Positions 5,121 through 58,015 of a DNA stretch of 64,000 nt are shown in pieces. The stretch is from the NCBI GenBank assembly GCA_963575745.1, contig CAUYUJ010000277.1, positions 1 through 64,000 on the forward strand. Reading direction: 5' to 3'. The translations under genes and the position numbers were made by a program. The number at the start of each line of letters is the position of its first letter. The first letter of the stretch is position 1. The DNA comes from Prorocentrum cordatum. Lineage: Eukaryota. The notes below the pieces were generated by a model, which saw nothing but the letters and a program-made list of their open reading frames with translations, ran no database searches and was not told the origin of the DNA.

Positions 5121-7399
5121 GGTCCCGACACTGCTTCACGGCGGCGCCCAGACCTCATGATTTAGCTGTTGCATCTCCCATTATCCGAGACAGGGGGCCG
5201 GCGGCATGGGGCGAAGCCCTTACGGATAAAAATGAGAAGCCAGATCGCGCAATTCCAAAGAGAGAGAGAGAGAGAGATAGATAGTTTTAAGAATATGAAT
5301 AGTCATCAAGAAATATAGAATCGAGAGAAAAAAGAAAACAAAAAAGGGAAGCACTGGGGGGGGGGCGAACTCTCTCAGCACAGACTCGGGGGAGAGAGCA
5401 GAGTAGTATTCATAGTGATAATTTTGCATATTTGAACAAGATGAGTACGAAAAGATAACAGGGCCAAACTAATCAGGTGACAAGCGAGTTCGCGCCGCGT
5501 CTGACGTTCCGCGTCCTCTCCAATTGCGCAAATTCTTTGCATGCTCACGGAGGCGTGTGTCGACCCGTCGCTTACTGTGTACAAGAGGCCAGGGGGCGGA
5601 GGGTATCATGCTGTGCCGAGGAGCTCGGGCGACATCTTGTGAGAAAGCGACGTGCACCCTCACACCAAAGCCAACGCCTCGAAACAGGTATGACGTAAAG
5701 CACAAGGGGGACGGCAGGAGGAAGGAAGGAGCGCGAGATTGCCAAGGAGGAGGGAAGAACAGGACAGTTACAGAAGGGAGGCAAAGGGAACGGAGGGGGA
5801 GAAGAAGACATGGGAGGAGAAGGAATGGGAGAAGACAAGTTGAGAAAAGGCAGAGGAACGGAGGCGACAGGGCATGGGAGAGGGAGAAGGACGATGATGG
5901 AAGTAGATAAGGGTGTGGGGCAGAAAGAGGAAGAGGAGGAGGAGGAGGAAGAGGAGGAGGAGAACGACGGGGCGGGGGGAGGAAGGGAGGGAGGGAGGAG
6001 AAGGAGAAGAAGGAGGAGGAGGAGGAGGAAGAAGAAGAGAAGGCGGCCGTTTTGCAAGTGAGGAAAGCCCCCACGCGACGCGCAGGCCAAGGGCCTTCGC
6101 GGCATTCTGCGCAAAACGCGACCTGGGTCGACCGAATCTGCACGCTGGCGGGGGCGCCCGCCGGCCAGCGCCCGCCGGCGCACGCTCACGCCGAGTTCTT
6201 CGATGATCGTGGGGACCCCCAAGAGTCGGCCGAGTCGGCCCTCCGCATGAAGAGGGTCCCGGAGGAATGGGGCCAAAGAGTCCTGTTCGCCACCCTCGAC
6301 CCTGCGGGGCCCGAGCGGGACAGGGCGAGAGCGGCGGCACATGCGTCGACGCAGCTGCTGGGGCGCGCGCGGGACACGAGGGCATCGCCCGAGTGGGCGA
6401 GCGCGCGCAGCAAATGTGGGCACGCCGAGCAAGGCGAATTCTCAGGGGCGGCGCCCATGGCGTCATGTTCGCCGCCCTCGGGCCCCCGGGGCCCTCCGCT
6501 GGCCCAAGGGCAGCCAGCAAAACTGCGCACCTGGAACGAAGAGCCGATGCTGGTGAAAGCCCCCCGGGGTCTGGGGCCGCTCCCTTCGGGACCCCTCTCC
6601 TTAAAGGCGGTTCCACCTCGCCTCGCCGAGCGCATCGCGCTGGAGGGGTGCTGTGCATTCGGAGTGGCCCCTGGGAGCGGTGCACCGACCCTCCGGGCAT
6701 GCTGCAGGACTCGGGGTAGACAGGAGGACGCCATCGGGAGAGAAGGGCGGGCGGTGCTCACGATGAGCAATTTCGCTCATCATCTCGCTGATGGCACCCC
6801 ACGGTGCGCCGCCGCTGGCATCTCTCGGGGAGCCCGCTTTCATTTCTTTTTCTACCACGCTAAAACCTTTAAAAAAAATCGAACGGGTGTCTTACGACGG
6901 GCCCAACAAAAAAAAACACCGACAAAACGGCGCTGCACGGGAGACTGAAGGGAGCACGGTAGCAAGGGAAAGGAAACGAACGCCATGCCAGAGTCATACC
7001 CACATGATCCTACACTGGAGACCCTCCCCTGCAGAATGGCAGTACGGAAGCAGCCACCTCAAGACCCTGTAGTCCTGCGGTGGGCCCTCCTCCCAGAAAA
7101 AGCTAATCCGAACTATCTCGAGCCCATTCTAAAAGAGCCCATAGGAACTCCCGACGTGAAATCAGCCAGCCAGCCCAGACGATGAGCTGGCTTCTGACGG
7201 ATTCTGCGAAGGGGCGTCGGGGGGCCCGACTACTGTCGGCAACCTCACTCACTTCTTGGCACGCTTCAGTTTTCTGCCGCCCACCCCCTGAAAGAATGTC
7301 CTCGAGCTTTCGTGGTCTTAGACCTCTGGGTCGCAGATTTAGAACACCCCTTCTGGGTATTACGTAGCTGCGAATATACACATGGCCACCTCCGCGGGC

Positions 7400-10380
7400 C
7401 CCTCGCCCGTCTCTGCCATCGCCACGACGTCGAAGCAACGGGCCGCCTTGACCTTCACCCCTGCGTCGCTTGCGCCCTTGCCGAACTCCACCATCGCCCT
7501 CGGCGTCTCCACGGCCTTTGCGGGGCTAGGCCCCTAGGCGATGGCCAGCCCCACGCCCGTCAGCCCCCCCACCCCCGCCACCTCGCGCACCCCCAACACC
7601 GACGCGCGGAGGCAAGCGTCGGGGTTCTTTCCAAGAAGATTGCTGCGGCACTCGCCCGTCTCCTCCTTGTCGCGGCAGCCCCCACCGTCCCCCGGCAGCG
7701 CTTGGCGCGCGCCACCAGCGCCAGATGCATCCAGGGGCCGATCTCGAGCTCCAGACGAGCGCGTTCCACTGCTCGCAAAGCAACAACTCGCAAGTGGCCT
7801 GGATCCCCCGCAGGAGATCCACGATACATCACACCGAAGAGCAAGCAGGTGTTTGTTTTGTTCTGACGTTTCTGAATAAGATATTTGCGAGTAGTGGAAC
7901 GCGCGCGGCGAAGCCCGGCCACAACGTTGTCGCCCTTAGCCGAGCTGCGGACGCTATCTTCGCGATGGATATTGCCCTTCTTCGCGATGCCCTTCGGTTC
8001 CTCGCCCTCCTCGCCCCTGCCCTGGGCCCCCGCGTCGGCGCCCGTCGCACCCCGCCTCGCGGCCGGCTCCGCCGCCGGCGCGAACATGGTCGACGGGCAC
8101 CTGCGGCGGCACCGGGGGATTTGGCGGCGGCGAAAGATCAGCCCCTCCCCGCTCTGACCCTCGAGCCCGGATGGACCCTGGGCCCCGCGCCAGCCCCCGG
8201 CAGACCAAGAGGGGGCGGGCGCCCCCCTGCAAGATCCGACGCAGCAGGGCGCCCTTGCGAGGGAAGGTCGTCGAGCAATAAGGGCATCTCTCGGCGCTGA
8301 GATCGCCCTCTGGAACGTTGACCCGCTCGGCGGCGATGGACCGCGCAGCGCATCGATGTTTCTCGAGACACGCCCCCCGACACATTTTTCCTCATTCTGG
8401 GCCATGGTGCCGACCGATTACACTCAACGATCTATCTGGCTTCTCGCGCCAGGTCGCGCCCTGCTTCGCCCGGGAGCATTTTCCTGCAAGTCTGCGTCGG
8501 AGAGGAAAAAAAACAGATATGCAATGCCCAGGAAGAAATCGACGACTCGCTCGGCGCCGCCACCCAGCCCACCGCAGCGAGGGGAGGCCACGGCACGCGC
8601 ATGTGCCCCAGCAACTGCCTCAAACGCCCGTTCGTCGTTCTGCAATTCGGATCCTCAAACCAAAGCTGTCCGAAAATCAACCACGCGACTGCCTCCGACG
8701 GGCCACGTCGGGAGGCATGGGGCAGCAGTCCAGGGACAAGGCAGATGCTTCGGCCATTTCGAACGGCGATGCAGCGACGGCCAATTGACACCGAAGACTT
8801 TAGCTCGACGGCGTATTCCAGCATTGGGGGTGTGGCGCTAGTGGGATGAGGACTTGAGGGCGCGTCTCAGTTTACGCATCTGTCATCGTTCCGACTTGTC
8901 CATCCATCTCCGCCCTCGCCACAGAACCGGCGCCCTCGAGCGCGCGCGGGGCTGTCGGCCTCACCAGAGAACACTGACAAGGGTGCTGACGTTGCCTGTC
9001 AAGACCCTGGGGGAATCACCCGCGGGCCTGACTGGCGCCTAGAAGTCCGGTCTAGACCTCTGTCGAATACGCGCCTGTAGCCCAGAGCGCGCCGCCGGGG
9101 TACTTCACGTCGGCGCAGGGCGCATTGCTCGGGGCCGCCTGTTTGTCTGTCCCAGGTTACCACCAGCTGGCTTGGACGACATCTGATCCCGAACCTTTCG
9201 GCACCCCTGGCCCAGAAAAATCAACATAATATCGTTGTTGTTAAGGACATCCACCGTAAAACCACCGGCGAAAAATCACCCCGCAAGGACTCTAGGAAAG
9301 AAGCGGCGTCTCCAGAACATCAACAAAAGTCAAGCGATGAAACAATCACCGAACTCGACCTGGGACGCATCTACGTCATGCTGCGTGACCTCCGAAAACT
9401 CCCCCGAGACCCTGAAAATTCTGGACACGGGATCAAGCTTCATCTGGATGCCCGAGAAAATGTCCACCGCAGCCTTAGCAACGATGTCCTTAATGAGACG
9501 GTCGTAGATAGCTATAGGTAGACTTGGTCCTTCCACGCCCCCATGCCTCACCCCTTCCTGCTGAGCAGTTGTCTCCAGGGCCCGTCAAAGCAAACATCAC
9601 GTTGTATGTAACAGGCGCGATTTGGACAAGTCTTCTACAGCACCACGGGTTCTTCGCGAAATGGTCAACTCATCGATCCAGGACGGCCCACACCTGACTG
9701 CGAGCCAAAGACCGAACGCCCTCTCCAAACCGATCAACGCTGCAGCGAGGATCTTACTATCCATTTCGGTGCGACTCGGGTCATCTCTGAGACGCCTGCC
9801 GATCTCGAACCAGCGCGATAACATCACGACAAGTTAGTCACCATTGGAAGGCCCCGAGTTGGGTCGTTGAAACCTGGCCCGCCGACGACCTGAGCTCGGG
9901 CACGATGACAGCATCCGAGACCACGTTTCCGATGTGACCGATGAGGCTCTTCGTACTCTAGCAGTCTTTATCATTATGCCCGCCCCTTTCGGCTTTATCA
10001 AGGACACTGTTTCCCCATGTTTGAAACGCTGGCGCGCTTGAAGTTGAGGGGCTCGTCAATGGCTCACACGATGTCGTCTACCTCGCAGTTCCCAAGAAGC
10101 TCCTCATCGGGGCCCTCTGGTTTAATTCGGGGCATGCCATTCTCATGCATCGGTACTTCAGTAGTCTCGAAGATTGTACACTAGGCGTCCGTTCTGACCA
10201 GCGCGTCCTCAACGTCAACGAAACACAAGGCATCTGTCACTAAGATATGGACCGTGAGCATGGGCATACGCGTTTGAGAGGTCAGCGCGTTCGCTATGGA
10301 ATAACAGCGGCGGGTATAATCCACGGCATACGCTCGTTTTGCGGCTGCTACTAAAGCAACCGTCATCAACTCTTACTGCT
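7400..10380 (-). mobile_element. Non-LTR retrotransposon copy 3: 5'-truncated and heavily decayed (RT, C2H2 fingers, downstream ORF)
   Basis: Fragments collinear with copy 1: YTRRCYSIA..TVHILVTDALCF, FKHGETVSLIKPKG, LIGLERAFG, RHGGVEGPSL..IYD..EFGD, LIFGQLWFE, CPYCSTTFPRKGALLR, then MFAPAAE..REDSVR..DNVV..GSPAG. Confidence 0.8.
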
Positions 10381-10909
10381 GTCTTGCCTTGCTTGGCTGC
10401 GCGCTTCAATCCGACGCCTTTGTTTCCGCTGGCTCCAGCCAGCGGAGCCACCCCTGTTCTTTTTCCACGCACATTTTTTCCGTCGGCGGCTGGGCAGAAG
10501 GCGACTGCCTTGGCGGATAGGCAACAGGGGACACGCAGTATGCAAATTAAGGCCGCAACGCACGGAAGGAGGAGGAGGAGCCCCGGCGCGACGGGAAAAG
10601 AGGAAGCCGCCAATTTTTACACCCAGACACACAAGCCACCGCCCCTTATCGTCCACAGCTCTGAAAGCCTAGTGTTGGGCTAGTAACATACCGAAGCCTA
10701 CACACGAACGCGAAAACATCGGCGCAATCGAATCTAATCGATCGGAGCCCTCGAATGCACAAGGCCGGGACCGACTCCCAGGACACTGACCCCAGGAAGA
10801 GCGCCCAGATCCCAACCTCGCGCACCCCATCCTCTTGGGGGGCGGCACTGCAATGGCAGGCCCCCCGAGCCCGTCTAGGCCCAGGAGGGCCAACGGCCAC
10901 ACGAGGAGC

Positions 10910-12230
10910 CCACAAAAAAAAACGCAACAACGCAACAACCGCTAAGTGCCACCCCCACTAGGTGAAAAAAACGATTGGCTCAACTGTGTTTGATTCGAAC
11001 TACTGGACCCCGCGAGCCCCCTCACTTCTTCTGACGTTTGGAGCCCTTGCATCTGGCCTTGGCCTGTTTTCTCGCCTTGAACGAGATCCTTTCCACCGTT
11101 TCCGCCGCTTTGCTCCTGGGCGCCGCGTCGCGCTCGAGCGAGAGGCCGGCTGCGAGGGCGCCCCCGTTGTCCCTCAACTGCATGAAGACTTGATGAAATT
11201 TGGGGTGGTGGCACACTGCGAAGGTCAATTGCTTGACCTCGTTGACCGCGTTCTCCGTCGCCGTGATCATGAAACTCCTGAACCCTGGTGATCCCCCCCC
11301 GCGATGCGCTTCACTGCCTCCATCGTGGCCTCTGGATCGGGCCCCTGCTGGATGGCCGCCGCTACCTCGGCCTCGTTGGCGAGGAGGGCTTCCGTCACGC
11401 GAATAGCACCATCTTCATCTGCGCGTCTGGGCGCTTGCCCCATGGGTGGCCTTTGAAGTCGCCCTTTTCCCGCTCCTGCTTGCCCATCTCGTTGTACTCG
11501 TCGGCGCCCTCCTCCAGCGCCAGCTGGATCTTGGCGTCGGCGCGCAGGGTGAGCACCACGTTCACGTCGCGGTTCTGGTTGCGAAGATTGTCCCCGTGCT
11601 GCAGCACCAGCGAGCTGATCGCTCACGTCAGCTGACGGTGTTCCCCTACCTCGGCCGCCTCATCGGCCCCTGCCACGGGCCTGCCCTCCTTCTCGGGGCG
11701 GCGCTCCTCGACCGAAACCTCCGCCATCGCCGCGAGCATCACTCCAGCGGGGCGAGCTCCGTACCGCAAGATGCCTAACTGCAGCGGACGGCTGTGCGCA
11801 AAGCTCCCGCTGCTCAATTCCTGGCGGGCTCGTAGTAGCTGAGTCGAGCGAGGGGGCAGAATGGTCTTCTCGAGCCACTGAAGCCTGAAGCTTTGCACTG
11901 ATGTGGCGCTGCAAGGAATCTTTTCTGGCGAAGACCTGTTGGCAGTACGGGCACGTCTTGTTTTCCAAGTTGTTCAGGGGAAGGTCGAGGCGATTGGCCA
12001 CGATTCCATGGGCTTGAAGTCGGTGACTGTTGAGGCCCTTCGGGCCCCTGCACACGTGACCGCATTCGGGACACTGGAGCATCACAAGCTGCAACCCGTC
12101 GGTGCGCTTCCCACCAGCGGGCGCGGGGTCGTTCGTAGCGTGAGATGGCAAAACCAGTTCAAGATCAGCCAGGGACAAGTCACAGAACCATCGAAGCCAT
12201 GGTTTAGATACTTCTGGTTCGGGTCCAGGG
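10910..12230 (-). mobile_element. Non-LTR retrotransposon copy 2: 3' fragment (C2H2 fingers plus disrupted downstream ORF)
   Basis: KPWLRWF..CPECGHVCRGPKGLNSHRLQAH..CPYCQQVFARKDSLQRH is homologous to copy 1. It is followed by MLAAMAEV..GHPWGKRPDA..FAVCHHPKF..LRDNGGALAAG..RSKAAETVE (stop at 11022). Confidence 0.85.
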
Positions 12231-12301
12231 CCGCCGTCACGAATACTGTTAACCTTCTTATGTTTTATATATATATATATAACAACAACAACAACACACA
12301 C

Positions 12302-12326
12302 AAAAAAAAAAAAAAAAAAAAAAAAA

Positions 12327-12396
<70 letters not shown>
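12302..12396 (+). repeat. ~95-nt poly(A) tract, preceded by (TA)n/(AAC)n; poly(T) on the LINE sense strand
   Basis: Directly visible in the sequence. Confidence 0.95.
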
Positions 12397-12397
<1 letters not shown>

Positions 12398-12840
12398 GCG
12401 ACCCCATTCCCAAGGAAGTTTTGCGAGGGCAGTCTGGAAGAAATCCACCGCAAGAAACGCGGCGCCACCGATAAGATCGGAGGAGCCCTGAGACACAAAA
12501 CCGACGGAAACGCGTGGGCGGTGGCCGCTGGGCCGTTGCCCCGCGCCTCACGCTCCCCTGCCTCTGCAGGGGAGGCACAGTGAAGGCGGCTCCCCCCTCC
12601 CTCTGGTGGAGAGAGGCGCACCCCCACAGAAGCGAGGCCCCAAAACTGGCCACAGGAATCCAGGCTCGAAGGAAGTTTACTGAGCGGGACCCCTGGGCTG
12701 CAACCTGAAAAAGCTCGTGAGAGCTCTCTGACCAACCGAGGGGCGAGAGAGGGGACGAGACGTCACCGTCGTCGGAGGAGGACGAGGGGAGAGAGCAAGG
12801 CAGGGTTCCCGAGCCTCGACTGGCCTGGCTGCTCCTGTTC

Positions 12841-13605
12841 TCACTTGCGTTTCTGGTTCTTCTTGCCGCCGCTGGCGGAGCCACTGCCCGATCGGAACGC
12901 CAGGGTCTCTACCAGCTTGGCTGCCTTGGACCTCGTCGCGATGTCGAACTGGAGAACGATACCCGCGGCGGCCAAGGCTCCGTTGGTCCGCAGCGTGTTG
13001 AGCGCTGCCTTGAACCCTGGGTAGTGATTCACCGCGAAGATCCACCTGGTCTCGCCCTCCTCGTTGCTGTCGCCCTCGTTGCGGCTGGCCTGGATCCGAA
13101 AGCAGCGAGTGGCCACGAACTTCGCCTCGGTGTTCTGTGCCAGCTTGCCCATCTGCAGCAGCACCTCCAGCGCTGCCTGCGCTGCCTCGGGTTCGGCCCC
13201 TTGCGACACGGCCTCCGTCACCTGCTGCCGCTTGAGGAGCACCGCCTCCATGATGCGAAAGACCACGGCGCGGGCCAGCGCGTCGGGCCGCTTGCCCAGC
13301 GGGTTGCCCAAGAACGGGCTGCCCAGCTCGCTCGCCTTCTCCTTGGCCTTGCGACCCTCGTCCTCGCACGTCGTGATGGCCTGCTCCAGCGCGTTCGCCA
13401 GGGCGCACTGCGGCTTGAGAACCATCACGAAGTTGTCGTCTCGGTGACCTGCTCGAGCGAGGTCCTCGCGCTGGAGGGCGAGCCTGGCGAGTGCCTTGGC
13501 CAGCGGGCCCACGATGTCGTTGCCCTCGCCCTTGTCCTCCGAGTTCGGGGCCGCCGCGCGCTTCTGGCTGGCTGCCACCTGCACCTCCGCGATCGGCTGG
13601 AACAT
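12841..13605 (-). CDS. Intact 254-aa LINE-borne downstream ORF ('ORF-X') of unknown function
   Basis: MFQPIAEV...GNPLGKRPDAL...WIFAVNHYPGF...RSKAAKLVETLAF..KKNQKRK. Homologues lie in copy 2 (11022-11739) and copy 3 (~7420-8087). Confidence 0.75.
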   Translation of the reverse strand: MFQPIAEVQVAASQKRAAAPNSEDKGEGNDIVGPLAKALARLALQREDLARAGHRDDNFVMVLKPQCALANALEQAITTCEDEGRKAKEKASELGSPFLGNPLGKRPDALARAVVFRIMEAVLLKRQQVTEAVSQGAEPEAAQAALEVLLQMGKLAQNTEAKFVATRCFRIQASRNEGDSNEEGETRWIFAVNHYPGFKAALNTLRTNGALAAAGIVLQFDIATRSKAAKLVETLAFRSGSGSASGGKKNQKRK

Positions 13606-16600
13606 GACTGGCAGGAACAGGAGGAGATGCTGCAAGCTCAAGTTGTGAATCTGCTTGAGCCTGAACGCCAGCGAGGACGGGGCAACGGCCAAGTTTGACA
13701 TGGCGGATCAACGTGTCCTTGCGAGTGAATTGTTTCGCACAGTGTGAGCAACGCTTCTGTTGAAGATCGACATCCGAAAGAAAGTTGGTCGTGGGATTCG
13801 CATAGGTGTTGTGTGCAGCATGTTTGTGATTGGCGAGGCCCTTCTCTCCATTGCAATTTTGTCCGCACACATCGCACTGAATCCAGACAACAGCAACAGG
13901 TTCGCCAGCTGCGACCTCGCCAAAGGTGAGAACACGACGAAAGCAGCGCTGCTCACAGGAGGCAAGCCAGCGAAGCCACGGCTCAGCAAGGTCAGGTAGG
14001 TCACCGTGAAGAAGGAAGAGGCGGCGGGCCTCCAGCTGCTCGTGCGCCTCCACAGTGTTCCAGAGCTGGCGCAAGTCGCCCTTCAGCAAGGGAAGGAGGC
14101 CGCGGGGCTCACGCGGGCCAGGAGGCTCGAAAGAAAAGCGGCCGAAGATGACGGCGCGGACCGCCAGCGTGGCGTCATAGAGGTCGGGTGTGGGCCCACG
14201 GAAGACTGGCCAAAGGACTCGTCGCCACCATTTAAGTCGTCAATGCTGAAGTGTGCTCTCCACTGTCGGGACACGGGCCTTCCTCCTGATCTCGCGGTTG
14301 GTGAGCTTGTTGATGTGGGCAGGGGAGTGGAGAAGCCCTCGGAGTTTCCGAACTTGCCAGGATTCCAAGCAGAGGAGCTCACGCTTGGACATCACAGCGA
14401 CTTCCAACGCATACAGGCCAACTGAACGAACCAACGCCTTCCACAAGCGTATCTTCATCTTCGGGCTGAACCCCCCTTGAAAGCACGTCGGAGGAGTCGA
14501 GCATGGGCTTGGTTGGCGCTCTGGAGCCGGTGGGTAATCTCAGTCTGGTAGCTGCCTGATGCGGCCATGCGAACGCCTAGGTACTTGACCGTCGGCTGCG
14601 GGTGCACGGCGGGGGCCTCGTCATCCTGCCAGGTCACGATGCCCGTGGAGTGTGAGTTGATGGACTTCTGGCGTCTCTTGCTTCCCGTGCCGCCGGGGAT
14701 GAGGAGAAGCTCAGTCTTGTTCGCGTTGACCTTCATGCCACCGAAGGAAATCTCGCCGTTCACTAAGTCAAGCAGCTGGGACGCCTCGTCAAAGTGGTTT
14801 ACCTCTCCAAACGTCAGCAGGTCGTCCAAGAACTCGAGGTGGGTAACGTCCAGGCACTCGCAGGAGTCATTCAGCAGCGGGTCCGAGGTGCGGATCTTCT
14901 TGAGGCTGGGGTCAAAGTAAACGAAGATCCCAGGAAACTCATTCTCGCGCTGACGTTCTGCCACCTCGGCAACTAGCTTGTCATAAGCAGCAACAAAGAG
15001 ACCAGGGCTTTCCACTCCTCCCTGGCGGACGCCGCGCTGAACATGAATGCGAGAGCAGGGTAGGCGAGTGCGCACATCACGATAGAGGCAGCACATGCCG
15101 TCATGGAGCTCCTCCAGCGTCTCACGTGCATCAGGCCGTAGTTGGAGGGACTCCAGGCTGTCCCAGATGGACTGCCGTGCGATGATGTCGAAAGCCTTCT
15201 CCAAGTCAGTGAGGATGACCAGCAGCATAGGTGGAGGGTCCGTGGCTCGTCCGCGTACTCGAACTCGATGGGCATGCTGATGACGGGTGATGACCTCCAT
15301 CGCAACCGAAATTGCGTCCCGAGTGCCACGGCCAGGCATGGCGCCGACCTGGGTTGGGGAGATCCTGTGGGAGATATCGCGCATGGCGTCGAGGGCGGTG
15401 ACCCGCGCGAAGACCTTGCCTATGTGGCTGATGAGGCTGATGGTGCGGTAGTCGTTCATGGCAGACTTCCCATCGCCTTTCGGCTTGCGCAGGTGCGCAG
15501 ACTCGCCATCCTTGAACCGCTGGGGTGCGGAGCCCAAAGCTTGGCTGCATCGAAAGATCTGGAGTAGGGGCGGGCTGACGTTCTCTAAGGCAAGCATCCA
15601 AGTCTCTGCAACCGCACCAGTAGGAGGAGCCTCTGGAAACCACTGTAAGGTAGGGCCTCCCTTGAAGTTCGGAAGGTTGCGAATGCCCTGCTTGATGTCG
15701 GCCAAGTCACACGGCCCGATGCGATCAGCATCACGGCCCATGTCACGGGCTCGGACTGGCAGTTCATGGAGCGCCATCGCCGTGCCATTGCACAGCGAAC
15801 AGATACTCGCCACTCGGACTTGGTTATCACGTTCTGAGTCGAAGCATGGGAGGCCTGTCTGCGGGTCGCTGACGGTCACGATGGGTGCAGGTGGATTGGG
15901 TGCGAGACGGCGCACGATGGAGAACAGGCGCCGCAGGTTATTCTCGCCAGCCGAGCGCTCGGCAAATGCTGCAAGATGTGCCAGACGCTGCCGCTTCTCA
16001 CTCCTGATGGCCTCGGTGCAGATCTTGGACGCCTCTAGGAACTTCTGGTGGAAGAAAAGGGTCAGCCATCTCGAGCCCGAAGAGAGCGCGGCCAGTTGAT
16101 ACTGCCAATGATGCTTCATCTTGATGAGTCGCATAGTGGCCTCCGAGAAGACTGGCCCCGTAGAAGCACCCCGCGGCTGTGGCATGTCGATGTAGTCCTG
16201 GGAGGCGGCCTCAATGATGACGCCCTCCATCGCGTTGAAGTACTCGGAGGGGTCGGCAAAGCGTTTGCCACTGCCGCAGACGTCAATCCAATCCCCATGC
16301 AAGCTCATCGCCTCGATGCCCTCCTGGACCTTGGTGCGGAAAAGATGCACACGATCAGGGATGGGATGGCTGTGCTCGAAGTCATCCTCTGCCAATTGGA
16401 CTGCGCGCAGGTCTTGGATGAGAAATTCACGGCGCCAGCGGGGTCGTGCAGATGGTTCAGAGGACTTCAAGCGGGCCCCGATGAACATTTTCGTCTGTAG
16501 AGGGCGGTGGTCCCGATATCCCCCGAGGTTGACTGGAAGGTCGAAGCGAGGGCGGGAAGCGTGGCCGTATCCACCTTGGCGTCGGACAAGAACATAGTCG

Positions 16601-17856
16601 ATGGTGGTCCAGGCTCCTGCGGGGCTCCTCCATGTGCCATTGCGGCGGCCTTTCTTCCCGAACGTATTGAGTGCCGCCAGCCCGAAATCCTCTAAGATGT
16701 CCATCAGAGCGCGCCCGTTGTTGTTGATGGGAGGACCATGCCCGCGAACGCCAGCGTGGCCCACCAGAGGAAGGTGGGGAGGCAGGTGAGCATTGGCGTC
16801 CAGCGTGACCACCAAAGAGGTGCGAGCAGGGATCTGACCAATCGCGTGGCCGCATGCGCGCCAGAAGGTCTCCTGCTGAGAAAAATGTGCTTCGCGGAAG
16901 GCGCCAGCATCCACTCCGTTCGGGGGCCGACCAGGGTCATTGGTGGGCGCGTAGCCGTTCAGGATGTAGAGGTCGCGCTCAAAGCGACTGTGGCCGAGGC
17001 TGCGAATCCGAATGCCTTGGAGCCTACCAGGCAACCACGAATGCTCGCACCTGATCTCGCCAGGCTTGAAGTGGCGCGCGCTGATGGCAATGAGGCAGCC
17101 GTCACGGTGGCCGACTCCCGACCGAGGGCGAGAGTGGACGCTGTATCCGCACGACTGCCAAGACATGCCTAAGTCCATCTGGGTGCCCTGCATCGCGAAG
17201 ATGGCCACGTTCTCTGCCTTTGCCAGCTCGAGAAGCTCCTCCAAGCGGCCTATGCGGCGGAGTGGTTCAGCATTGAAGCTCCAGAGCCGCACCGTCCTCT
17301 CTTTGAAGCAAGTTGCGTCGTTCCGAGCTGGCGCGCGATCGAGCTCTTCAGGTTGTTGGCGCAGCTGGGGCGGTTCGCTGGTGATCAATCCTGGGAGGAG
17401 TTGTGCTGCATCAGCACGAGTATATCGTCGTCCTCGGTACCAAGCAGCGCCCACCACCAACGCGAGCCGCACAGCCCGCCTCAGGGCACGCTTGCCGCGC
17501 ATGCCGATACGCCCTGCTTCCAGCGGCCTGAAGCAAACGGCTCCAGTAGTGCTGTCCTCGCGGGTCGGGCTGCCCGCGAACGCTCGCCTCGCAGCGGGCC
17601 CTGAGTCAGCAGCCCCGCCAGCAGAGTGCAGCAGCGGCAGCCATGGTGCAACTGGCGGGAGGCCAAGGGCTGGCCAGGACTTGCGACCTGGCACGACCGT
17701 CCGCTGGGACGGCAAACGTCTCGAGCCGTCGAGGCTTTGTTCTCCTTCCGCCAGCTTCCGCCGACCTTCCGCTGGCCTCCGCCGAGGGCGAGATGTCCAC
17801 TTCCCGATTCCTCTAAGGCGAGGCTGTTGTGGGGACGCTCTTGACGGCTGTGGCAC
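13600..17856 (-). pseudogene. LINE ORF2: AP endonuclease, reverse transcriptase and two C2H2-type zinc fingers, with one frameshift and one stop
   Basis: APE motifs: LWSFN, NGYAPT, TLDANAH, TWRSP..IDYVLV, DHRPL. RT motifs: KPKG..YRTISL, DLEKAFD, GVRQG..SP.LF, FLDD, KYLGV. Frameshift at the G6 run near 14471-14476, continuing KIRLWKALVRSVGLYALE. TGA at 14240 (QH*RLKWW). Fingers: CDVC..NHKHAAH and CSHCAKQFTRKDTLIRH. Confidence 0.92.
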
Positions 17857-18084
17857 CGCTCGAGCAGAGACGATTACGGACCCTTCTCTGCCTGGTCGGC
17901 GCCTGCAGACATACGCACTACCCAGCGCTCAATGAGTCGTTCCTCCCACGACGCCCCAGGCCATCTGGAGACTCACCCATCCCAAGCTATCTCCTCCAAA
18001 CTCAATGGTAGGGTCAGCAATCCCCGTGTTATTATAATTAATAATATCATGATTGGTATTCCTCCTTCTCAGCATCATAATATA

Positions 18085-18143
18085 ATCATCATCAGCGTCT
18101 TCATCATCATCAGCATCAGCATCAGCATCAGCATCAGCATCAG

Positions 18144-18201
<58 letters not shown>

Positions 18202-18249
18202 GTCGTCATCATCATCATCATCACCAGCATCATCTCATCATCATCCTCG

Positions 18250-18290
<41 letters not shown>

Positions 18291-19818
18291 GTCGTCATCA
18301 TCATCATCATCAGCAGCAGCAGCATCGTTACCATCATCATCAGCATCAGCAGCATCATCATCATCATCAGCAGCATCACCATAATCAACAGCATGGTCAT
18401 CGTCACATCATCATCGTCATCATCGTCAACATCAACAACGTCAGCATCAGCATCAGCACCAGAATCAGTATCGTCAGCATTATCATCGGCTGCATCATCA
18501 GCATCATAATCATAATCCGCAGCATCATCATCAGCATCATCATCATCATCATCATCCTTACCAGTATCATCATCATCATCATCCGCATCATCAGCATCAT
18601 CATCACCATCATCATGATTATCATCATCAGCATCATCCTCACCAACAGCATACTCATCATCAGCATCATCATCAGCAGCAGCATCATCAGTATCAGCATC
18701 ATCATCATCAGCATCATCATCATCAACGGCATCATCACCATCATCAGCAGCAGCATCATCAGCATCATCATCATCAACGGCATCATGATCAGCATCACCA
18801 TCCTCATTATCGCCATCATCCGCATCATCATCAGCGTCATCGGCGTCGTCATCATCATCATCATCATCATGAGCACCATCATCATCAGCATCATCATCAT
18901 CGGCGTCAGCATCATCAGCATCATCAGCACCAGCAACATCACCATCATCAACAGCATGGTCATCGTCACATCATCATCCGCATCATCGTCATCATCATCA
19001 TCAACATCAGCATCAGCATCATCATCATCATCGTCATCATCATCGTCATCATCATCATCATCATCGTCAGCAGTATCATCATCGTCACCGTCATCACCAC
19101 CATCATCATCATAATCATAATCCGCAGCATCATCATCAGCATCATCATCATCCTTACCAGTATCATCATCATCCGCATCATCAACATCATCATCACCATC
19201 ATCAGAATTATCATCCTCATCATCAGCATCATCATCAGCAGCAGCAGCATCTTCTCAAAATCCTCACCATCATCATCAACAGCATCATCATCAGCAGCAG
19301 CATCATCGTCACCATCACGTTCAGCATCATCATCATCATCATCATCATCATCAACATCATCATCATCATCACCATCATCACCATCATCATCACCATCATC
19401 GGTCATCGTCATCAGCATCGTCATCATCATCATCAGCAGCATCAGCATCAGCATCGTCATCACCACCATCAACCGCACCATCACCATCACCATCATGTAC
19501 ACAAGTGCACAGCTTGTACTGACCGATGCCTCCTTGCATCGACTGAAGCATCATCATCACCACCATCAACAACATCATCATCAGCAGCAGCATCATCATT
19601 ATCAGCATCAACATCATCAGCCGCAGCATCATCATCAGCAGCAGCATCGTCATCATCCTCATCGACAGCATCAGCAGAATCATCATCATCAGCAGCATCG
19701 TCATCATGATCTTCATTAGCATCATCAGCATCATAATCGTCATCATCGTCATCGACATCGTCGTCGTCATCATCAGCATCATCATCAGCATCATCATCAT
19801 CGTCGTCGTCATCGTCAA
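18085..19818. repeat. Long degenerate (CAT/CAG/CGT)n microsatellite
   Basis: About 1.7 kb of catcatcat with variant triplets. Confidence 0.95.
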
Positions 19819-20111: not shown

Positions 20112-22194
20112 GGTCCTCCCCTCCACGTAAGCTCGGCGCACCAAACTTGCGTCAGCCTCTCCGATCAGGGAGCACACTTGACTTCACGGCACCATAATGG
20201 AATCTTGGAGGACGTGCCACGCTTCCCGCCGCGCACACTCCTGCTTCCTGCCTGCTTTCGCTACACATGGTGCGTGCAAACAACAGGAAATCAACAACCA
20301 CGCAGCACCAAATTCGAGCGCACAGCACACCAAACGCAGCACCACGGACAGACGTCATGACTCGATGGGCTCAGGATACGCTCCAGGAATACTGGGGCAT
20401 CCCGCGGCCCCCGCTTCCTTCTGGAGCCCTCTCGGAAAGAAGTTGAAATCTTGAAGAGGCCGTCGAAGTCCTGGAACGTCAAAGCAAGGGGGGGCCGAAC
20501 GATTTTGCGTTTTCCCTGCGCGCGCGTGGCTGGATGGAGGGCTCGGTCCTTGGCAGCGATACTTGGAGGCACTCTTAGGGGCGACACTCGGGGGCTATAC
20601 ACGGGGGCAATCCTTGGGGACAATACTCGAGGGCATTGCTTGGGGCAATACTTGAGGGCAACACTGGGGGCAGCACATGGGAGCCTTACATGAAGACTAC
20701 ACACGGAGACAATACTCAGTGGCAGTACGTGGAGGCGGTGCTTGCCACCCCCGCACTCTTGTTCGCAAGTGCGGGGTGCCACGCACCGTCGTCGTGATCT
20801 CCTGCCCCTCTCGACCTCACCGCACGCAAGAGTGCGAGCGCGCGCGCACCCGGCGGCAGGCTGAGGCCCTGCACGGCCTCGGCTCCCGGCTTCCGCCACC
20901 GCGCAAAGCGTCCCGTACAGAGCGACCTCCGCTGCCAGAGGTCTCCTGGAGGCTACCGCCCCTGGGTTAGGAGGCAACTGCTGTGAGATCTTCACAGGAA
21001 CGACGAAGGGCTACTGAGCCCAAGTGAAGGGCCATCGGGCAAGATCGGTCTGGATTCAGCCAATATTGAACCCGACTGAGCCAGATCGAGCGGGATCGAA
21101 CGGAAGTGAGCAGGATTATGCCTGAGCATGCCTGGTCTCGAACACGAACATACCAGCGCCGATGCTGAAGTGAAGCTCCCAGGAGCTGCATCGTAACCTG
21201 GGGGAGCAAAAAGAATACCCATGAGACGCCGCTGTGGGGAACCCATCCGCGTGTTCCTGCTGAAGCCAAGACCAGGCCCTGACAGGATCCCAACAGCAGC
21301 GTGCATTGATACAGTACTCTTTTCCCTTCTAGAGACCTCATCTCTCTTCGTCGAGGGCTGCAAGACCTCTGCTGTCCCTCGACTCGCGCTGAAACGTCCA
21401 TACATTCCAAATATATCTGGATACCTCCAGGTCGATCTATCTGGACTCACATAAACTTCCGTGCATCGGCTTGTCTGGTTTAATCCTAGAGATCAAATGA
21501 GCAAGAGTCGTCACGACCTTAGAGAATCCGTACAGCCTTCTCGGCTCGAGATGTTTGCTGTGGGCCCCTGGCAGGCCCGAGCTGGATCGAATCGCGAAGT
21601 CGGATCGGATCGCTAACGGATCGGATACGCCAGCGAATCGTCCCGAACCGAAGCGAAGTCGGATCGCCTCGCCGAGACTGGTTCAAGCTGGCCCCGGCCG
21701 ATGCCGGCGAATCGAATCGCGGCCCCAACAAGGCGAATGAAACCGCACCGAATCGGATCGCAGGCGGCCCTGCTGGCCCGAGGCGGTTCCATGGAGGCTG
21801 GCACGCTGGGCTTCAACATTGAGCACCAGCGCGTACGCTGCCGAGACTCTTGGGAGGCCTCTTGGACCAACTTGGGACCCTCTTGCGCTGGCCCGGGGCC
21901 GTCCTGGGGCACTCTTGGGCTGCCCCCAGCCTCGCTGGAGAATCCCGACGGGAGCACGTCGTCGTCGCCGCCGCCGCCCACGCCGCCGTCGTCGTCGTCG
22001 TCGTCGTCGTCGTCCCCCACACCGCCCCGCCACGAGGTGAGAGCAACGGGACCCTAGCCTGACGTCTCGAGCCAGGCCTGAGCCAAAATCCCTGCCCTGG
22101 CGGCGGCCGATCGCGCCCGCGCCTGCGCCCACGAAGCACCAAAGCCACAGTGTGGGGGGCTCGCCCCAGTCACTTCTTCCTGCTCCGCTCTCCT

Positions 22195-37064: not shown

Positions 37065-40000
37065 TTCCCATATCCTAAGATGGGGTTCTTGTTGTTACTT
37101 GGACGCCTCCTACTCCTTCTTCTCCCTCTTCTCCTTCTCCTCCTCCTCATACCCAGACTTACTCACACTCAGATTTACTCATACCCAGACGTACTCAGAC
37201 ACAAACTTACTCATACTCAGACCTACTCATACTCAGACATACTCCTGCTCAGAGTTATTTCCCCATATCCTAAGATGGGGTTATTGCTCCCCATATCCTA
37301 GGATTGGGTTATTGTTTTCCCCCATATCCTAAGATGGGGTTATTGTTATTTCTTGGACGCTGCCGACTTATCCTCCTTCTTCTCCTTCTCATCCCCTCTC
37401 CTCCTCATACCCAGACTTACTCATACACAGACTGACTCACACTCGACTTACTCATACCCAGTCTTACTCACACACACAAAAATACTCATACTCAGACCTA
37501 CTCATATTCAGACCTATTCCTACTCAGACTTACTCATGCTGAGACTCACGCACGCCCCGTTCGCGCCTGTTTTGTGGGGATGCCTCTGGCTTCAGCCCCC
37601 CCGAAGGGGAGTCGCCAGGGGTATTTTCACGGTCCCGTTCGCGGCCGCTTTGTGGGGATGTCTCAAGCGGTTTGCCTGTGTTCTGTCCCAACACCCTTCG
37701 CTTTCGGAGCAGATTTGGAGGATGTCTCGAGCGAGGCGCTCATGTTCACCCCCCAGGTGGGCCAGATTTTGAGGATGTCTCGATCAGTGGCCAGACTCGT
37801 GGGCACAGATTCTCCGCAGGATGCCACTGGAGGCTCCAACAGGCTCCAGGAGGCCCCAGGGGACCACATGAGGTCCCAGGAGGCATCAGGAGGCCACAGG
37901 ATGTCCCAAGAGGCTCTAGGAGGCCCCAGGAAGCTCCGGGAGGCCTCAGGAAGCCACAGGAGGCCCCAGGAGGCCAGAGGAAGCGCCAGGAGGCCTCGGA
38001 AGGCAACAGGAGGCCCCGAGATGCCCCAGGAGCAGTCCCAAGCGCCCAAATGGCTAGACGCGCATTCCCAGATCCCACTGACAATTATCATTTTAAAAAG
38101 ATGCAAATATAGGGATCTCCACGCAGTGAGTAATTGCTTGGACGCCGCCGACGTCTCCTCCTTCCTCTCCTTCTCCTCCCCTCTCCTCCTCATACCCAGA
38201 CTTACTCATACACAGACTGACTCACACTCAGACTTACTCATATCCAGTCTTACTCACACACAAAATTATTCATACTCAGACCTACTTATACTGAGACCTA
38301 CTCCTACTCTGATTTACTCATGCTGAGACTCACGCACGCCCCGTTCGCGGCCGTTGTGTGGGGGGATGCCTCAAGCGGTTTGCCTGTTTTGTGTCCCAAC
38401 ATCCTTCGCTTTCGGGGCAGATTTGGAGGATGTCTCGAGCGAGGCGCTCAGTTTCACGTCCCGAAGGGGAGCCGCCGAGGGGTGTTGCACGGTCCCGTTC
38501 GCGGCCGTGTTGCGGGGATGTCTCAAGCGGTTTGCCTGTTTTCTGTCCCAACATCCTTCGCTTTCGGAGCAGATTTGGAGGATGTCTCGAGCGAAGCGCT
38601 CATTTTCACGTCCCTACGGGGAGCCGCCGAGGGGTGTTGCACGGTCCCGTTCGCGGCCGTTTTGTTGGAGGATGTCTCAAGCGGTTTGCCTGTATTCTGT
38701 CCCAGCATCCTTCGCTTTCGGAGCAGATTTGGAGGATGTCTCGAGCGAGGCGCTCAGTTTCACGTCCCTAAGGGGAGCCGCCGAGGGGTGTTGCACGGTC
38801 CCGTTCGCTTTCGGAGCAGATTTGGAGGATGTCTCGAGCGAGGCGCTCAGTTTCACGTCCCGAAGGGGAGCCGCCGAGGGGTGTTGCACGGTCCCGTTCG
38901 CGGCAGTTTTGCGGGGATGTCTCAAGCGGTTTGCCTGTTTTCTGTCCCAACACCCTTCGCTTTCGGAGCAGATTTGGAGGATGTCTCGAGCGAGGCGCTC
39001 ATTTTCACCCCCCAGGTGGGCCAGATTTTGAGAATGTCTCAATCGGTGGCCAGACTCGTGGGCACAGATTCTCCGCAGGATGCCACTGGAGGCTCCAACA
39101 GGCTCCAGGAGGCCCCAGGAGCCCAGATGAAGTCCCAGGAGGCATCAGGAGGCCACAGAAAGACTCAAGAGGCCACAGGATGTCCCAAGAGACTCTAGGA
39201 GGCCCCAGGAAGCTCCGGCAGGCCTCAGGAAGCTACAGGAGGCCCCAGGAGGCCAGAGGAAGCGCCAGGAGGCCTCGGAAGGCAACAGGAGGCCCCGAGA
39301 AGCCCCAGGAGCAGGAGGCCTCAGAAGGCAACAAGAGTGGCTCCAATCCCATGTGTTTGACGTATGCTCGTATAGATTGGGCCTCACCTGGAGCACGAAT
39401 CCTTGATGTCATACGTATGTTTCTATACATTGTCCTTCTCCTGTGTATTTATGTTCCTATAGGGCCTCTCCTGGGGCACGAGTCCTTGGTGTTTTACGTG
39501 TGTTCCTATAGATTGCCCCCTTCTCCTGTGGCTCCAATCCGCAATGCTTTATGTACGTCTGTTGCTATAGATTGCGCCCCTCCTGGGGCACGAATCCTCC
39601 CTAGGAGGTCCCAGGAGGCCCCAGGAGGCCCCACGAGGCTCCTGGAGGCCCCAGGAAGCCCCAGCAGGTTTCAGGAGGCCCCAGCAGGCCCCAGGAAGAC
39701 CCAGCCTCATGCGCAGAGACGCGCTCGTACTACTGAGGCTCATTCACACTCCAATTCATTCTCAGTTAGATTCATGACCAGACCGTCACAACTGAAGCCC
39801 GTTTATATTCGAAAGCTCTTGCGCCTAGACATTCACGGCGGACAGGTCCATGCGAATAGACACAAGCTTACTCATACTCAGACCCACTCATACTCAGATC
39901 TACTCCTACTCAGACTTACTCATGCTGAGACTCACTCATACCGAGACTACCTCATACTCAGAATTGCGGGGCGCTGGTTTCAGCACCCCTGATGGGAGCC

Positions 40001-40312
40001 GCCAGGGGTGATTTCACGGTCCCGTTCGCGGCCGTTTTGTGGGGATGTCTCAAGCGGTTTGATTGTTTCTGCCTCAACATACTTGGCTACCAGAGTAGAT
40101 TGTGCGGATGTCTCAGGCGGGGCGCTGGTTTCAGCACCCCTAGGGGGAGCCGCCAAGGGTGTTTTCAAAGCTCCGTTCGTGGCCGTTCTGTGGGGATGTC
40201 TCAACATGATATTCGCATGTTGCGTTGCATGGCTAGACGCGCATTCCCAGATCCCACTGACAATTATAATTTTAAAAAGATGCACATATGGGGATCTCCA
40301 CGCAGTGAGTAA
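37065..40312 (+). repeat. Composite tandem duplication (~787-bp unit) with an internal ~152-bp tandem array and a TACTCA minisatellite
   Basis: Unit starts at 37352 and 38139. CAGATTTGGAGGATGTCTCGAGC occurs at about 37710, 38418, 38570, 38724, 38817 and 38969. ATGGCTAGACGCGCATTCCCAGATCCCACTGACAATTAT occurs at about 38050 and 40229. Confidence 0.9.
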
Positions 40313-56339: not shown

Positions 56340-56879
56340 TCACTGGAAGGAGAAATTGCTGGAGATCTTGTCGAACAGATGCTCGCCGTAGGCGATGGGG
56401 GCGCCCCCGAGGGCACGGTCGAGCGCACGGTCTGAGTCCCTGGAAAGACCGTCCCCGCACGCAGACGGAGCCTCGTCTCTCGGAGGTGCTCCGACGGGGC
56501 GGATGACGGCGTCGAAGTTCGGCTCGAAGAAGAAGGCGACGGAGGTGCGGTAGCAGCCCACCTGCGTCTGCCGGACACGGTGCGGGGTCGCCTTGAAGCG
56601 CCTGCCGCTCCACACGTGCAGCATGTCGCCGAGATTCACCACGAATGCCCCGGGCAGCGGCTCGACCGTCGTCCAGTCGCCCGCCGCCGTGCGCACCTCG
56701 AGGGCGCCCGGCGTCTCATCCTGGCTCAGCAGGGTCCACCAGCCGTAGTCGGTGTGCTCGCCGCAGGACTCGACGCCGTCCGCCTCCCTGCCGCCCAGCG
56801 GCGGGTACCCGATGATCCTGGCCACCCAGAAGCTCCGGTCCACCAGCGGGGCCAAGTGGTCGGGGGGCAGCCCAAACGC
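56340..56879 (-). CDS. 2-oxoglutarate/Fe(II) dioxygenase (IPNS/DIOX family), last exon
   Basis: RIIGYPP, GEHTDYG (HxD), FVVNLGDML, ATPHRV (distal His) and RTSVAFF (RxS). AG|G acceptor; TGA at 56340-56342. Confidence 0.92.
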   Translation of the reverse strand, partial: AFGLPPDHLAPLVDRSFWVARIIGYPPLGGREADGVESCGEHTDYGWWTLLSQDETPGALEVRTAAGDWTTVEPLPGAFVVNLGDMLHVWSGRRFKATPHRVRQTQVGCYRTSVAFFFEPNFDAVIRPVGAPPRDEAPSACGDGLSRDSDRALDRALGGAPIAYGEHLFDKISSNFSFQ

Positions 56880-57915: not shown

Positions 57916-58015
57916 NNNNNNNNNNNNNNNNNNNNNNNNNNNNNNNNNNNNNNNNNNNNNNNNNNNNNNNNNNNNNNNNNNNNNNNNNNNNNNNNNNNNN
58001 NNNNNNNNNNNNNNN
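57916..58015. other. Assembly gap (100 N)
   Basis: Run of N. Confidence 1.

Follow-up and report, generated by a model that had tools for sequence, protein, structure and literature searches.

We examined a 64,000-nucleotide (nt) stretch of the genome of the dinoflagellate Prorocentrum cordatum (contig CAUYUJ010000277.1, positions 1 to 64,000 of the forward strand), referred to here as the window. The window DNA is GC-rich and holds three retrotransposons that lack long terminal repeats (non-LTR elements), arranged head to tail from ~18020 down to ~6890. They are long interspersed nuclear elements (LINEs) in which the open reading frame (ORF) that contains the reverse transcriptase (RT), ORF2, is followed by a further ORF that we call ORF-X. 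Coordinates are given in window numbering, and all three LINE copies and their ORF-X lie on the minus strand. The features of the array are listed below with the evidence used to place them; HMM stands for the hidden Markov model of the ORF-X family and UTR for untranslated region.

12300-18020 (both ends approximate), minus strand: LINE copy 1, apparently full length (ORF layout, 5' microsatellite, 3' T-run).
14458-17501, minus strand: copy 1 ORF2, endonuclease-like and RT part (open from 17928, first in-frame ATG at 17501).
14240-14472, minus strand: copy 1 ORF2 lesions, a 1-nt frameshift at ~14470 and an in-frame stop at 14240-14242 (three-frame translation).
13606-14457, minus strand: ORF2 thumb, two C2H2 fingers and a proline-rich spacer up to the ORF-X ATG (translation, in the next frame after the lesions).
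~13811-13876 and 13682-13750, minus strand: the copy 1 C2H2 fingers, with two CX2C...H motifs visible.
13606-13701, minus strand: ATG-free leader of 96 nt before copy 1 ORF-X, with a candidate acceptor TTCAG/G at ~13661.
12841-13605, minus strand: copy 1 ORF-X, intact, 254 amino acids (aa) plus stop (ATG at 13605, stop at 12841-12843), +1 to the finger frame.
12300-12840, minus strand: copy 1 3' UTR, ~440 nt followed by a run of ~95 T at 12300-12398.
10900-12250, minus strand: LINE copy 2, 5'-truncated inside the ORF2 thumb at ~12250 (translated matches, family HMM).
~11662-12250, minus strand: copy 2 thumb and finger remnants.
11739 to ~11025, minus strand: copy 2 ORF-X remnants, in three frames with one stop and two frameshifts.
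6890-10354, minus strand: LINE copy 3, 5'-truncated and strongly decayed, endonuclease part missing (translated matches, family HMM).
9108-10354, minus strand: copy 3 RT remnants.
~8230-8290, minus strand: copy 3 finger 2.
8087 to ~7255, minus strand: copy 3 ORF-X remnants (HMM, tblastn).

Copy 1 reads, in order, a 5' leader of ~450-500 nt, ORF2, ORF-X, the 3' UTR and the terminal T-run, beyond which come (TG)n, (TTG)n and (TA)n tracts and then copy 2. No ORF1 is found upstream of its ORF2, where the short leader gives way to a (GAT)n-type microsatellite from ~18090; an earlier reading made from the letters alone (the sequence-only reading) had likewise found no upstream ORF1 in this copy. The microsatellite, a long one of the (GAT)n/(GCT)n type, occupies 18090-18500 directly upstream of copy 1, and the 18-20 kb bin has a GC content of 0.45 and a GC skew of -0.53.

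The RT of copy 1 is of the LINE type, matching RVT_1 with an E-value of 7.5e-19 and 68.7 bits (cut-off 29.6), and its best PDB sequence matches are L1 ORF2p and R2 RT chains (E 5e-6 to 8e-5). The match to Exo_endo_phos is weak (E 0.011, 16 bits, below the cut-off of 24.5) and covers profile positions 5-204 of 225. Both finger profiles score just under their Pfam gathering cut-offs, zf-C2H2_4 at E 2.9e-5 with 24.9 bits (cut-off 27) and zf-C2H2 at E 1.2e-4 with 22.8 bits (cut-off 25.2). ORF2 is broken in copy 1 although its ORF-X is intact. Contigs of DNA run X1 that are at least 90% identical to the window carry an extra base behind 14470 and an A to G change at 14242; these variants restore the frame and remove the stop, and hence close relatives have, or recently had, an intact ORF2 running from RT through thumb and fingers.

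Copies 2 and 3 fit the LINE pattern of 5' truncation at differing points, and all three copies have a common 3' part, consisting of the fingers, ORF-X and the T-run region. DNA similarity between them is almost nil, the best stretches being 31 nt at 81% and 28 nt at 82%; they are saturated at the DNA level and retain 25-40% protein identity. The three copies are old, separate lineages of one clade. No target-site duplication could be defined for any of the window copies. A T-run with a GT(T)GGGCYC motif lies downstream of ORF-X in copy 2 (10902-10925, minus strand) and copy 3 (6895-6917, minus strand) and recurs at ~1150-1175 in the distant relative L002, whereas copy 1 has its run of ~95 T instead; the combination may be a recognition or end motif at the 3' end of the element. 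Each copy begins directly after the T-rich 3' end of the preceding one, and such a head-to-tail array of diverged copies suggests that they inserted into the 3' ends of LINEs or arose there by template jumping.

The family HMM and tblastn place a homologous ORF-X immediately after the fingers in all three copies, as the sequence-only reading had proposed. The HMM match to copy 1 runs from 13605 to 12853 (E 3.5e-81). Copy 2 is matched in three pieces, at 11619-11401 (E 2.5e-26), 11401-11300 (E 0.047) and 11279-11034 (E 3.6e-14), with tblastn values of 4e-12 and 3e-9. The pieces in copy 3 are weaker, at 8087-7908 (E 0.044), 7668-7600 (E 0.92) and 7515-7396 (E 9e-5), with a tblastn value of 2e-7. 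The end at ~7420 first drawn for copy 3 falls short, since remnants reach ~7255. A search of the 64 kb with the same HMM and with tblastn gave no further ORF-X copy.

The codons at the three junctions are AGT CAT GTT, AGT GAT GCT and GAC CAT GTT, which puts ORF-X at +1 to the finger frame in every copy; the earlier observation that its ATG sits at codon position 2 of a still-open ORF2 frame is exactly right. The ORF2 frame continues through the junction in all three copies, with no stop or 3' UTR there, and its stop comes 309 codons past the ORF-X ATG in copy 1, 26 in copy 2 and 42 in copy 3. One common frame in three copies would arise by chance with a probability of 1/9, and the copies also share ancestry, so that agreement in frame is by itself weak evidence. 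The strong parts of the observation are homology and linkage.

The ORF2 frame of copy 1 has no stop anywhere in the 254-codon ORF-X, remaining open to 12677, and encodes a tail rich in arginine and glycine. When ORF-X was shuffled synonymously 5000 times with amino acids and codon usage fixed, only 0.68% of the shuffles had no stop in that frame (P=0.0068; mean 3.6 stops). Context-dependent codon bias, or selection on the arginine/glycine-rich ORF2 tail (dual coding), could account for this. Copies 2 and 3 and the relatives L001 and L002 close the ORF2 frame 16-54 codons after the ORF-X ATG. GC content at third codon positions is 0.886, and there are several overlapping open frames, including an antisense frame of 325 aa that is unable to hold stops given the codons used.

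We then searched 1.84 billion cluster representatives with HMMER. A cut-off of E<=1e-3 gave 103 representatives related to ORF-X, of which 57 pass <=1e-10 and 11 pass <=1e-30; the majority are 230-270 aa long (typically 240-260) and aligned from residue 1. In an alignment of 25 members that are 23-54% identical to the window protein (A1), five columns are invariant (R55, N58, F169, I189 and D221) and 13 are near-invariant, M1, G100, P102, G104, K105, P107, R167, C168 and W188 among them. The motifs picked out beforehand from the three window copies fall on these invariant and near-invariant columns. The HMM matched 115 of the 116 proteins gathered, and the N-terminal part is present in 77. In 56 of these 77 a Met-Phe pair stands at the aligned start, 37 times as residue 1 and 19 times after an in-frame leader; the 21 proteins without it include many that are truncated or degenerate. 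A Met-Phe-x-Pro start, which is conserved in ORF-X, is the type of N-terminus modified by NatC-type acetyltransferases. P0029 and P0037 are MMETSP transcript ORFs labelled complete. The leader of a further member, P0053, translates to IWLK, as a relict spliced leader would, and is the sole candidate for a leader peptide in the N-terminal extensions of the 116 proteins.

ORF-X shows no resemblance to the Transposase_22 group, to which L1-type ORF1p belongs, in any of the 25 aligned members at E-values up to 10. The best E-value in a PDB sequence search was 0.28, the ESM Atlas gave no usable match, and 27 pattern matches in viral contigs included no ORF-X relative. P. cordatum gene models splice ORF-X onto RT fragments (for example P0003, P0040 and P0089) or onto unrelated sequence, and unrelated C-terminal parts are seen in P0004, P0071 and P0072; the family is likely to be mis-annotated in the public P. 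cordatum assembly.

AlphaFold2 models of the window ORF-X (predicted local distance difference test, pLDDT, 85.2) and of P0048, which is 29% identical to it, both reached a pLDDT of ~85 and a predicted template-modelling score (pTM) of 0.75, and they have the same topology. In order, the models contain ~30 disordered residues, a helix of 21-32 residues, strand 1, ~90 helical residues, strands 2 and 3, a helix, strand 4, a helix and a basic tail. This beta-alpha(n)-beta-beta-alpha-beta order places the predicted protein in the ferredoxin/RRM-like fold class with a four-helix insert. A three-copy complex prediction scored 0.00, in a run made without an alignment and with an uncertain fold. The conserved start, length and core residues, together with the confident fold, show that ORF-X is a real protein family under selection; with its linkage to the LINE, set out below, the proposal that it is a selected component of the element is supported.

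A structure search independent of Foldseek compared both models with 48,161 PDB chains using a tool whose trust level is Z 8. The RRM domain of human L1 ORF1p (2w7a_B) was matched at Z 4.7 by the window model (94/99 residues, root-mean-square deviation 3.8) and at Z 5.1 by the P0048 model (92/99 residues, 4.2), and the ORF1p trimer (2yko_A) likewise at Z 4.7 and 5.1. The two chains ranked first and third for the first model and tenth and eighth for the second. 2w7a_B is the best match covering the beta-sheet in both models, yet it remains at noise level; the sheet is otherwise covered by ferredoxin-like folds (ACT, RRM, PII and Cas6) at Z 3.2-3.9. The predicted resemblance to ORF1p is therefore coherent but unproven, and the suggestion of a relocated ORF1 keeps a weak structural hint while finding no sequence membership. 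In the models, the conserved R167, C168, F169, W188 and I189 lie on strands 2 and 3, and together with the basic tail they would suit nucleic-acid binding.

ORF-X lies 3' of the fingers in each of the three copies in the window. Among them is copy 2, which is 5'-truncated and has the appearance of an ordinary truncated insertion of a LINE, with ORF-X as its 3' part. The same linkage occurs outside the window, where at least six database models join pieces of ORF2 to ORF-X, four of them from P. cordatum (P0003, P0040, P0071 and P0089) and two from assemblies (P0062 and P0104). Joining the two parts in P0003 and P0040 requires a predicted intron landing in the frame of ORF-X shortly before Met-Phe, which implies the same out-of-frame layout of ORF2 and ORF-X in those elements. 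The percentage identities to copy 1 of the ORF2 and ORF-X parts, respectively, are 76 and 74 for P0003, 36-38 and 31 for P0040, 28 and 30 for P0089, 29 and 36 for P0062, and 37 and 37-59 for P0071. Divergence of ORF-X thus parallels that of the RT in five elements. We also considered whether ORF-X might be the ORF1 of the next downstream element; this was rejected, as an RT follows ORF-X in copy 2 only and not in copies 1 and 3.

Not every relative has the +1 overlap. P0104 carries finger 2 and its Met-Phe start in a single frame, 15 residues apart with no stop between them, and in P0062 the thumb and fingers run into ORF-X in one frame, with the first ~25 ORF-X residues out of frame; the latter fits a secondary indel or the gene caller's handling of a frameshift. 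With these two in-frame cases the idea that the overlap is itself a selected feature fails as a general statement.

Direct evidence of expression comes from relatives and not from the window locus; the two nucleotide sequences concerned, L001 (3183 nt) and L002 (1214 nt), are only 28-29% identical to the window ORF-X. The dinoflagellate spliced leader (DinoSL; SL, spliced leader) has its sequence given in PMC5585692, a passage of which also describes dinoflagellate nuclear mRNAs as SL-capped. L002, a transcript-like contig, consists of ORF-X and UTRs only; its bases 2-12, which precede the ORF-X ATG by 86 nt, agree with the DinoSL 3' end at 10 of 11 positions. A 13-mer leader pattern did not fit its truncated end; it was the shorter 11-mer that matched. 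Dinoflagellate transcript assemblies often end inside the spliced leader. L001 is a genomic stand-alone copy. Its positions 1162-1176, on the ORF-X strand and ~110 nt ahead of the ATG, are an exact 15-mer in which the end of the SL runs into a truncated relict SL; none of 200 shuffles contained this 15-mer. A longer 23-mer composite of SL and relict was unmatched in L001 at up to three mismatches, and the sole candidate for a target-site duplication of this retrocopy, an 11-mer with one mismatch, is within chance.

The criterion for a relict DinoSL stated in a passage of PMC5585692 is an exact 9-mer within ~500 nt upstream of a genomic ORF, and another passage takes repeated relict SLs to mark mRNAs that were retroposed more than once. 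The exact 15-mer of L001 counts as a relict by this measure; the 9-mers near the window's ORF-X, each one mismatch from the leader, do not. Because of the tandem relict SLs of L001 and the SL-like start of L002, the stand-alone ORF-X copies look like recycled processed mRNAs. When 20 ORF-X representatives were looked up, 15 came from contigs of 911-1675 nt.

At the window locus the sequence around the ORF-X start would suit an mRNA beginning there. The stretches free of ATG before the ORF-X start are 96, 270 and 200 nt long in copies 1-3 (gaps between ATGs in copy 1 ORF2 average 61 nt, and 6.6% reach 150 nt), and the nearest ATG upstream of the copy 1 start shares the ORF-X frame. Each of the five ORF-X starts read is preceded by a purine at -3. 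Candidate splice acceptors, each a pyrimidine-rich stretch ending CAG/G just after finger 2, lie at ~13661, 11885 and 8228. The spacer from finger 2 to the ATG contains a 9-mer that differs from the DinoSL 3' end at one base in copy 1 (13654-13662) and in copy 2 (11869-11877), both on the minus strand; by a post hoc count, all three spacers together (426 nt) would be expected to contain ~0.07 such 9-mers (20 per 128 kb searched). They may be a relict leader dating from when an ORF-X mRNA was captured long ago through template switching, or may be coincidental. A search of the window with a DinoSL 15-mer gave four matches at three mismatches against 2.0 expected, none of them near the elements.

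A 230-nt contig of RNA-library run X11 matches 12761-12990 with one mismatch, a segment that reaches from the final part of ORF-X into the UTR. Contigs of this run and of runs X10 and X4, whose kind is unrecorded, lie at 12428-13567 only, in ORF-X and its UTR, apart from short repeat-like pieces at 17550-17798, and none lies on the RT part; DNA run X1 covers 28 of 30 bins, and we did not count missing cover as evidence. For the contigs aligned to the window, five differences are listed within ORF-X, and no leader-like loose end is listed near 13600.

Collectively, these observations point to an SL trans-spliced monocistronic mRNA as what would be the most likely route of ORF-X expression. Among the routes named in the sequence-only reading, the trans-spliced subgenomic RNA is the one that gained evidence, all of it from relatives; reinitiation and +1 frameshifting gained none. 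Overall, the interpretation offered in that reading finds partial support.

The explanation that we favour, and to which we give somewhat better than even credence, is that ORF-X is a selected 3' accessory gene of a LINE clade, probably RNA-binding, and expressed from its own trans-spliced mRNA. Elements of this clade would have the order 5' leader, APE-like (apurinic/apyrimidinic endonuclease-like) domain, RT, thumb, two C2H2 fingers, ORF-X and a 3' UTR with a T-rich end, with no upstream ORF1. ORF-X would most likely remain untranslated from the full-length RNA. The host DinoSL would be trans-spliced to an acceptor in the closing part of ORF2, beyond finger 2 but ahead of the ORF-X ATG, to give a capped monocistronic mRNA of ~1-1.7 kb whose first AUG is the conserved Met-Phe codon. 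The protein would probably bind the element RNA and so be an analogue of ORF1p or gag located 3' of pol. Stand-alone forms with an SL-like 5' end or relict SLs are seen in the relatives, and for the window locus we infer the trans-splicing, the binding of RNA and any role in retrotransposition. As the short mRNA would retain the 3' end of the element, it could itself be retroposed, and the abundance of stand-alone ORF-X copies bearing relict leaders would then be accounted for.

Several observations weigh against this explanation. With regard to expression, the L002 11-mer occurs somewhere, with at most one mismatch, in 16 of 200 shuffles, so that its significance rests mainly on its position at the contig start, and for the element in the window itself neither a transcript start nor an SL junction nor a protein was observed; with its broken ORF2, it is not an active element. 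With regard to linkage, association with an RT is documented for ~9 loci, several of them through intron-containing models, and for most family members the contig is too short for a neighbour to be visible. L001 has neither an RT nor a finger in the 1.3 kb upstream and the 1.1 kb downstream of ORF-X. A family mostly unlinked to RT, which the sequence-only reading had counted against its own proposal, is thus found in part, as many members have no RT nearby. The one-frame layout of P0104 makes a fused product possible in some lineages, and the stop-free ORF2 frame over copy 1 ORF-X is left unexplained by the model. With regard to function, neither the window ORF-X nor any of the 25 aligned members has a Pfam match. 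The ORF1p matches, below the trust level, are tied with many long-helix matches, and Foldseek searches of PDB and BFVD gave nothing at E<=0.001, one of them being empty even at E<0.1. Of the structural checks proposed earlier, the modelling gave confident results but the Foldseek comparison gave no significant match.

The alternative that survives best, which we nonetheless consider unlikely, is that ORF-X is an independent and much-retroposed retrogene, cellular or selfish, with its own SL-capped mRNA, and need not serve the LINE at all. The units of LINE and ORF-X would then be chimeric retrocopies, formed once or repeatedly when the RT jumped from the SL-capped 5' end of an ORF-X mRNA onto LINE RNA. 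Stand-alone copies and transcripts are indeed common (L001, L002, the MMETSP ORFs and the 15 representatives on contigs of ~1-1.7 kb), the tandem relict SLs of L001 are typical of recycled retrogenes, and the near-leader 9-mers in the spacers of copies 1 and 2, a post hoc finding, are what such a jump could have left behind. Repeated capture of a host gene, however, would not be expected to produce parallel divergence of ORF-X and RT within one genome lineage, and the ORF2 frame crosses the junction in all three copies with neither a stop nor a 3' UTR. If capture happened just once, long ago, and co-evolution followed, this alternative agrees with the favoured explanation and merges into it.

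We regard as improbable a second alternative, in which ORF-X is made as the C-terminal part of ORF2, either by in-frame fusion, the +1 offset being decay, or by programmed +1 frameshifting. The one-frame arrangements of P0104 and P0062 and the position of the ATG inside an open ORF2 frame in every window copy would be expected from it. However, 56 of 77 proteins keep the Met-Phe start (37 of them as residue 1), some members are complete transcript ORFs that stand alone, and the SL-like 5' end of L002 lies just ahead of the ATG. Three lineages with less than 40% protein identity have the same +1 offset, and the X1 copies that are at least 90% identical to the window have no indel between 13000 and 14400 in the incomplete list of their differences. 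The first ~25 ORF-X residues of P0062 are themselves out of frame, and no conserved slippery motif was noticed in the three junction sequences.

Similarly low in probability is translation of ORF-X from a full-length bicistronic LINE RNA by termination-reinitiation or internal entry, as for mammalian L1 ORF2. The two ORFs do overlap, ORF2 stops 26 and 42 codons past the ATG in copies 2 and 3, and the ATG-free leader would also suit internal scanning. The ORF2 stops are nevertheless not near the ORF-X AUG, that of copy 1 lying 309 codons downstream, and backward reinitiation over such a distance is not, to our knowledge, a known mechanism. Dinoflagellate nuclear mRNAs are moreover SL-capped according to the passage of PMC5585692 noted above, and short RNAs that look to be of this kind are seen in relatives. 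Finally, that ORF-X is non-functional here, a chance open frame in GC-rich DNA (with its high GC3 and its overlapping frames, among them the 325-aa antisense frame) or a dead relic (copies 2 and 3 being decayed and the ORF2 of copy 1 broken), is very improbable, and for the family as a whole it is already contradicted by the conservation, the retained start and length, the confident coevolution-based fold and the transcript ORFs.

Set beside known systems, the favoured explanation has partial precedents. L1-type ORF1p is, like ORF-X, a small protein encoded beside the RT ORF of a non-LTR element, and both have (in ORF-X by prediction) an N-terminal helix leading into a beta-alpha-beta-beta-alpha-beta domain as well as a basic region. 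ORF1p, however, lies upstream of ORF2 and is the first cistron, whereas ORF-X lies downstream in all three copies and would probably be made from its own trans-spliced mRNA. ORF-X has no likeness to ORF1p in sequence or Pfam assignment, a helical insert of ~90 residues in place of helix 1 and no recognisable C-terminal domain of the ORF1p kind. The ingi/L1Tc elements of trypanosomatids have a single ORF with APE, RT and C-terminal C2H2 fingers that possess nucleic-acid chaperone activity. The window LINE has the same order, with a putative endonuclease, the RT and two candidate C2H2 fingers at the C-terminus, and likewise lacks an upstream ORF1, but we know of no description of a separate ORF after their fingers. 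Retroviral env and the second genes of other retroelements are 3' genes expressed from a spliced subgenomic mRNA. The env mRNA resembles the proposed ORF-X mRNA in being a shorter processed RNA with the 3' end of the element; ORF-X would differ in using trans-splicing of a host leader and not cis-splicing, in belonging to a LINE, and in having a gag/ORF1p-like product and not an envelope.

Within dinoflagellates, SymbioLINE-Dnmt of Symbiodinium (de Mendoza et al. 2018, PMC5890265) is, in the passages of that paper used here, a LINE with an odd accessory ORF, conserved UTRs and no poly(A) tail, all features shared with the ORF-X element, and its transcription is biased to the 3' end. Its accessory ORF encodes a DNA methyltransferase and stands upstream of the RT as an ORF1, whereas ORF-X is unrelated and downstream. 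The SL traces of L001 and L002 liken stand-alone ORF-X copies to the relict-DinoSL retrogenes of Slamovits and Keeling (2008, as cited in a passage of PMC5585692); those arose from cellular genes, whereas the parent of ORF-X would be an internal part of a retrotransposon. Full-text searches and the passages taken from PMC5890265, PMC5203782, PMC7998251, PMC10449503 and PMC11453091 describe no LINE with a conserved downstream ORF, Repbase and Dfam lying outside the scope of that search.

Elsewhere in the window, an open frame of 1058 aa at 50053-53226 (plus strand) has a copia-type RT (RVT_2, E 5.7e-17) and represents a second, unrelated retroelement. Another open frame, at 56343-57713 (minus strand), has a 2-oxoglutarate and Fe(II)-dependent (2OG-Fe(II)) oxygenase domain (E 1.4e-20) and is probably a cellular gene; a run of 100 N follows at 57916-58015. 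Adjacent leader-like pieces, a 15-mer with three mismatches and two 9-mers with one mismatch each, lie at 22066-22091 on the minus strand and, judged by their sequence, are a probable relict DinoSL of a minus-strand retrogene. At 37659-40054 (plus strand) TGTCTCAAG occurs five times at spacings of ~150-1100 nt, and this recurrence suggests a tandemly repeated unit.

LINEs are thought to place an RNA-binding accessory protein upstream of the RT ORF, with both translated from one RNA. If the favoured explanation is true, a conserved downstream gene with a trans-spliced mRNA to itself would be novel for non-LTR elements in both architecture and strategy of expression. It would also put a name to a widespread and unannotated dinoflagellate protein family (103 clusters, no Pfam entry), and it would improve repeat and gene annotation, several Prorocentrum models currently fusing ORF-X to RT or to unrelated genes. 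A wider reading, which we offer tentatively and hold to be somewhat doubtful, is that a whole dinoflagellate clade of LINEs carries pol first and a gag/ORF1p-like protein last, and that SL trans-splicing yields a capped subgenomic mRNA that is itself retroposed into stand-alone retrogenes. Its machinery may add to the massive retrogene load of dinoflagellates, and the overlap with ORF2 may be dual coding in some lineages. Retrogenes make up >20% of genes in dinoflagellate genomes according to a passage of PMC5585692, and in genomes so rich in them ORF-X would provide a concrete molecular handle on retroposition.

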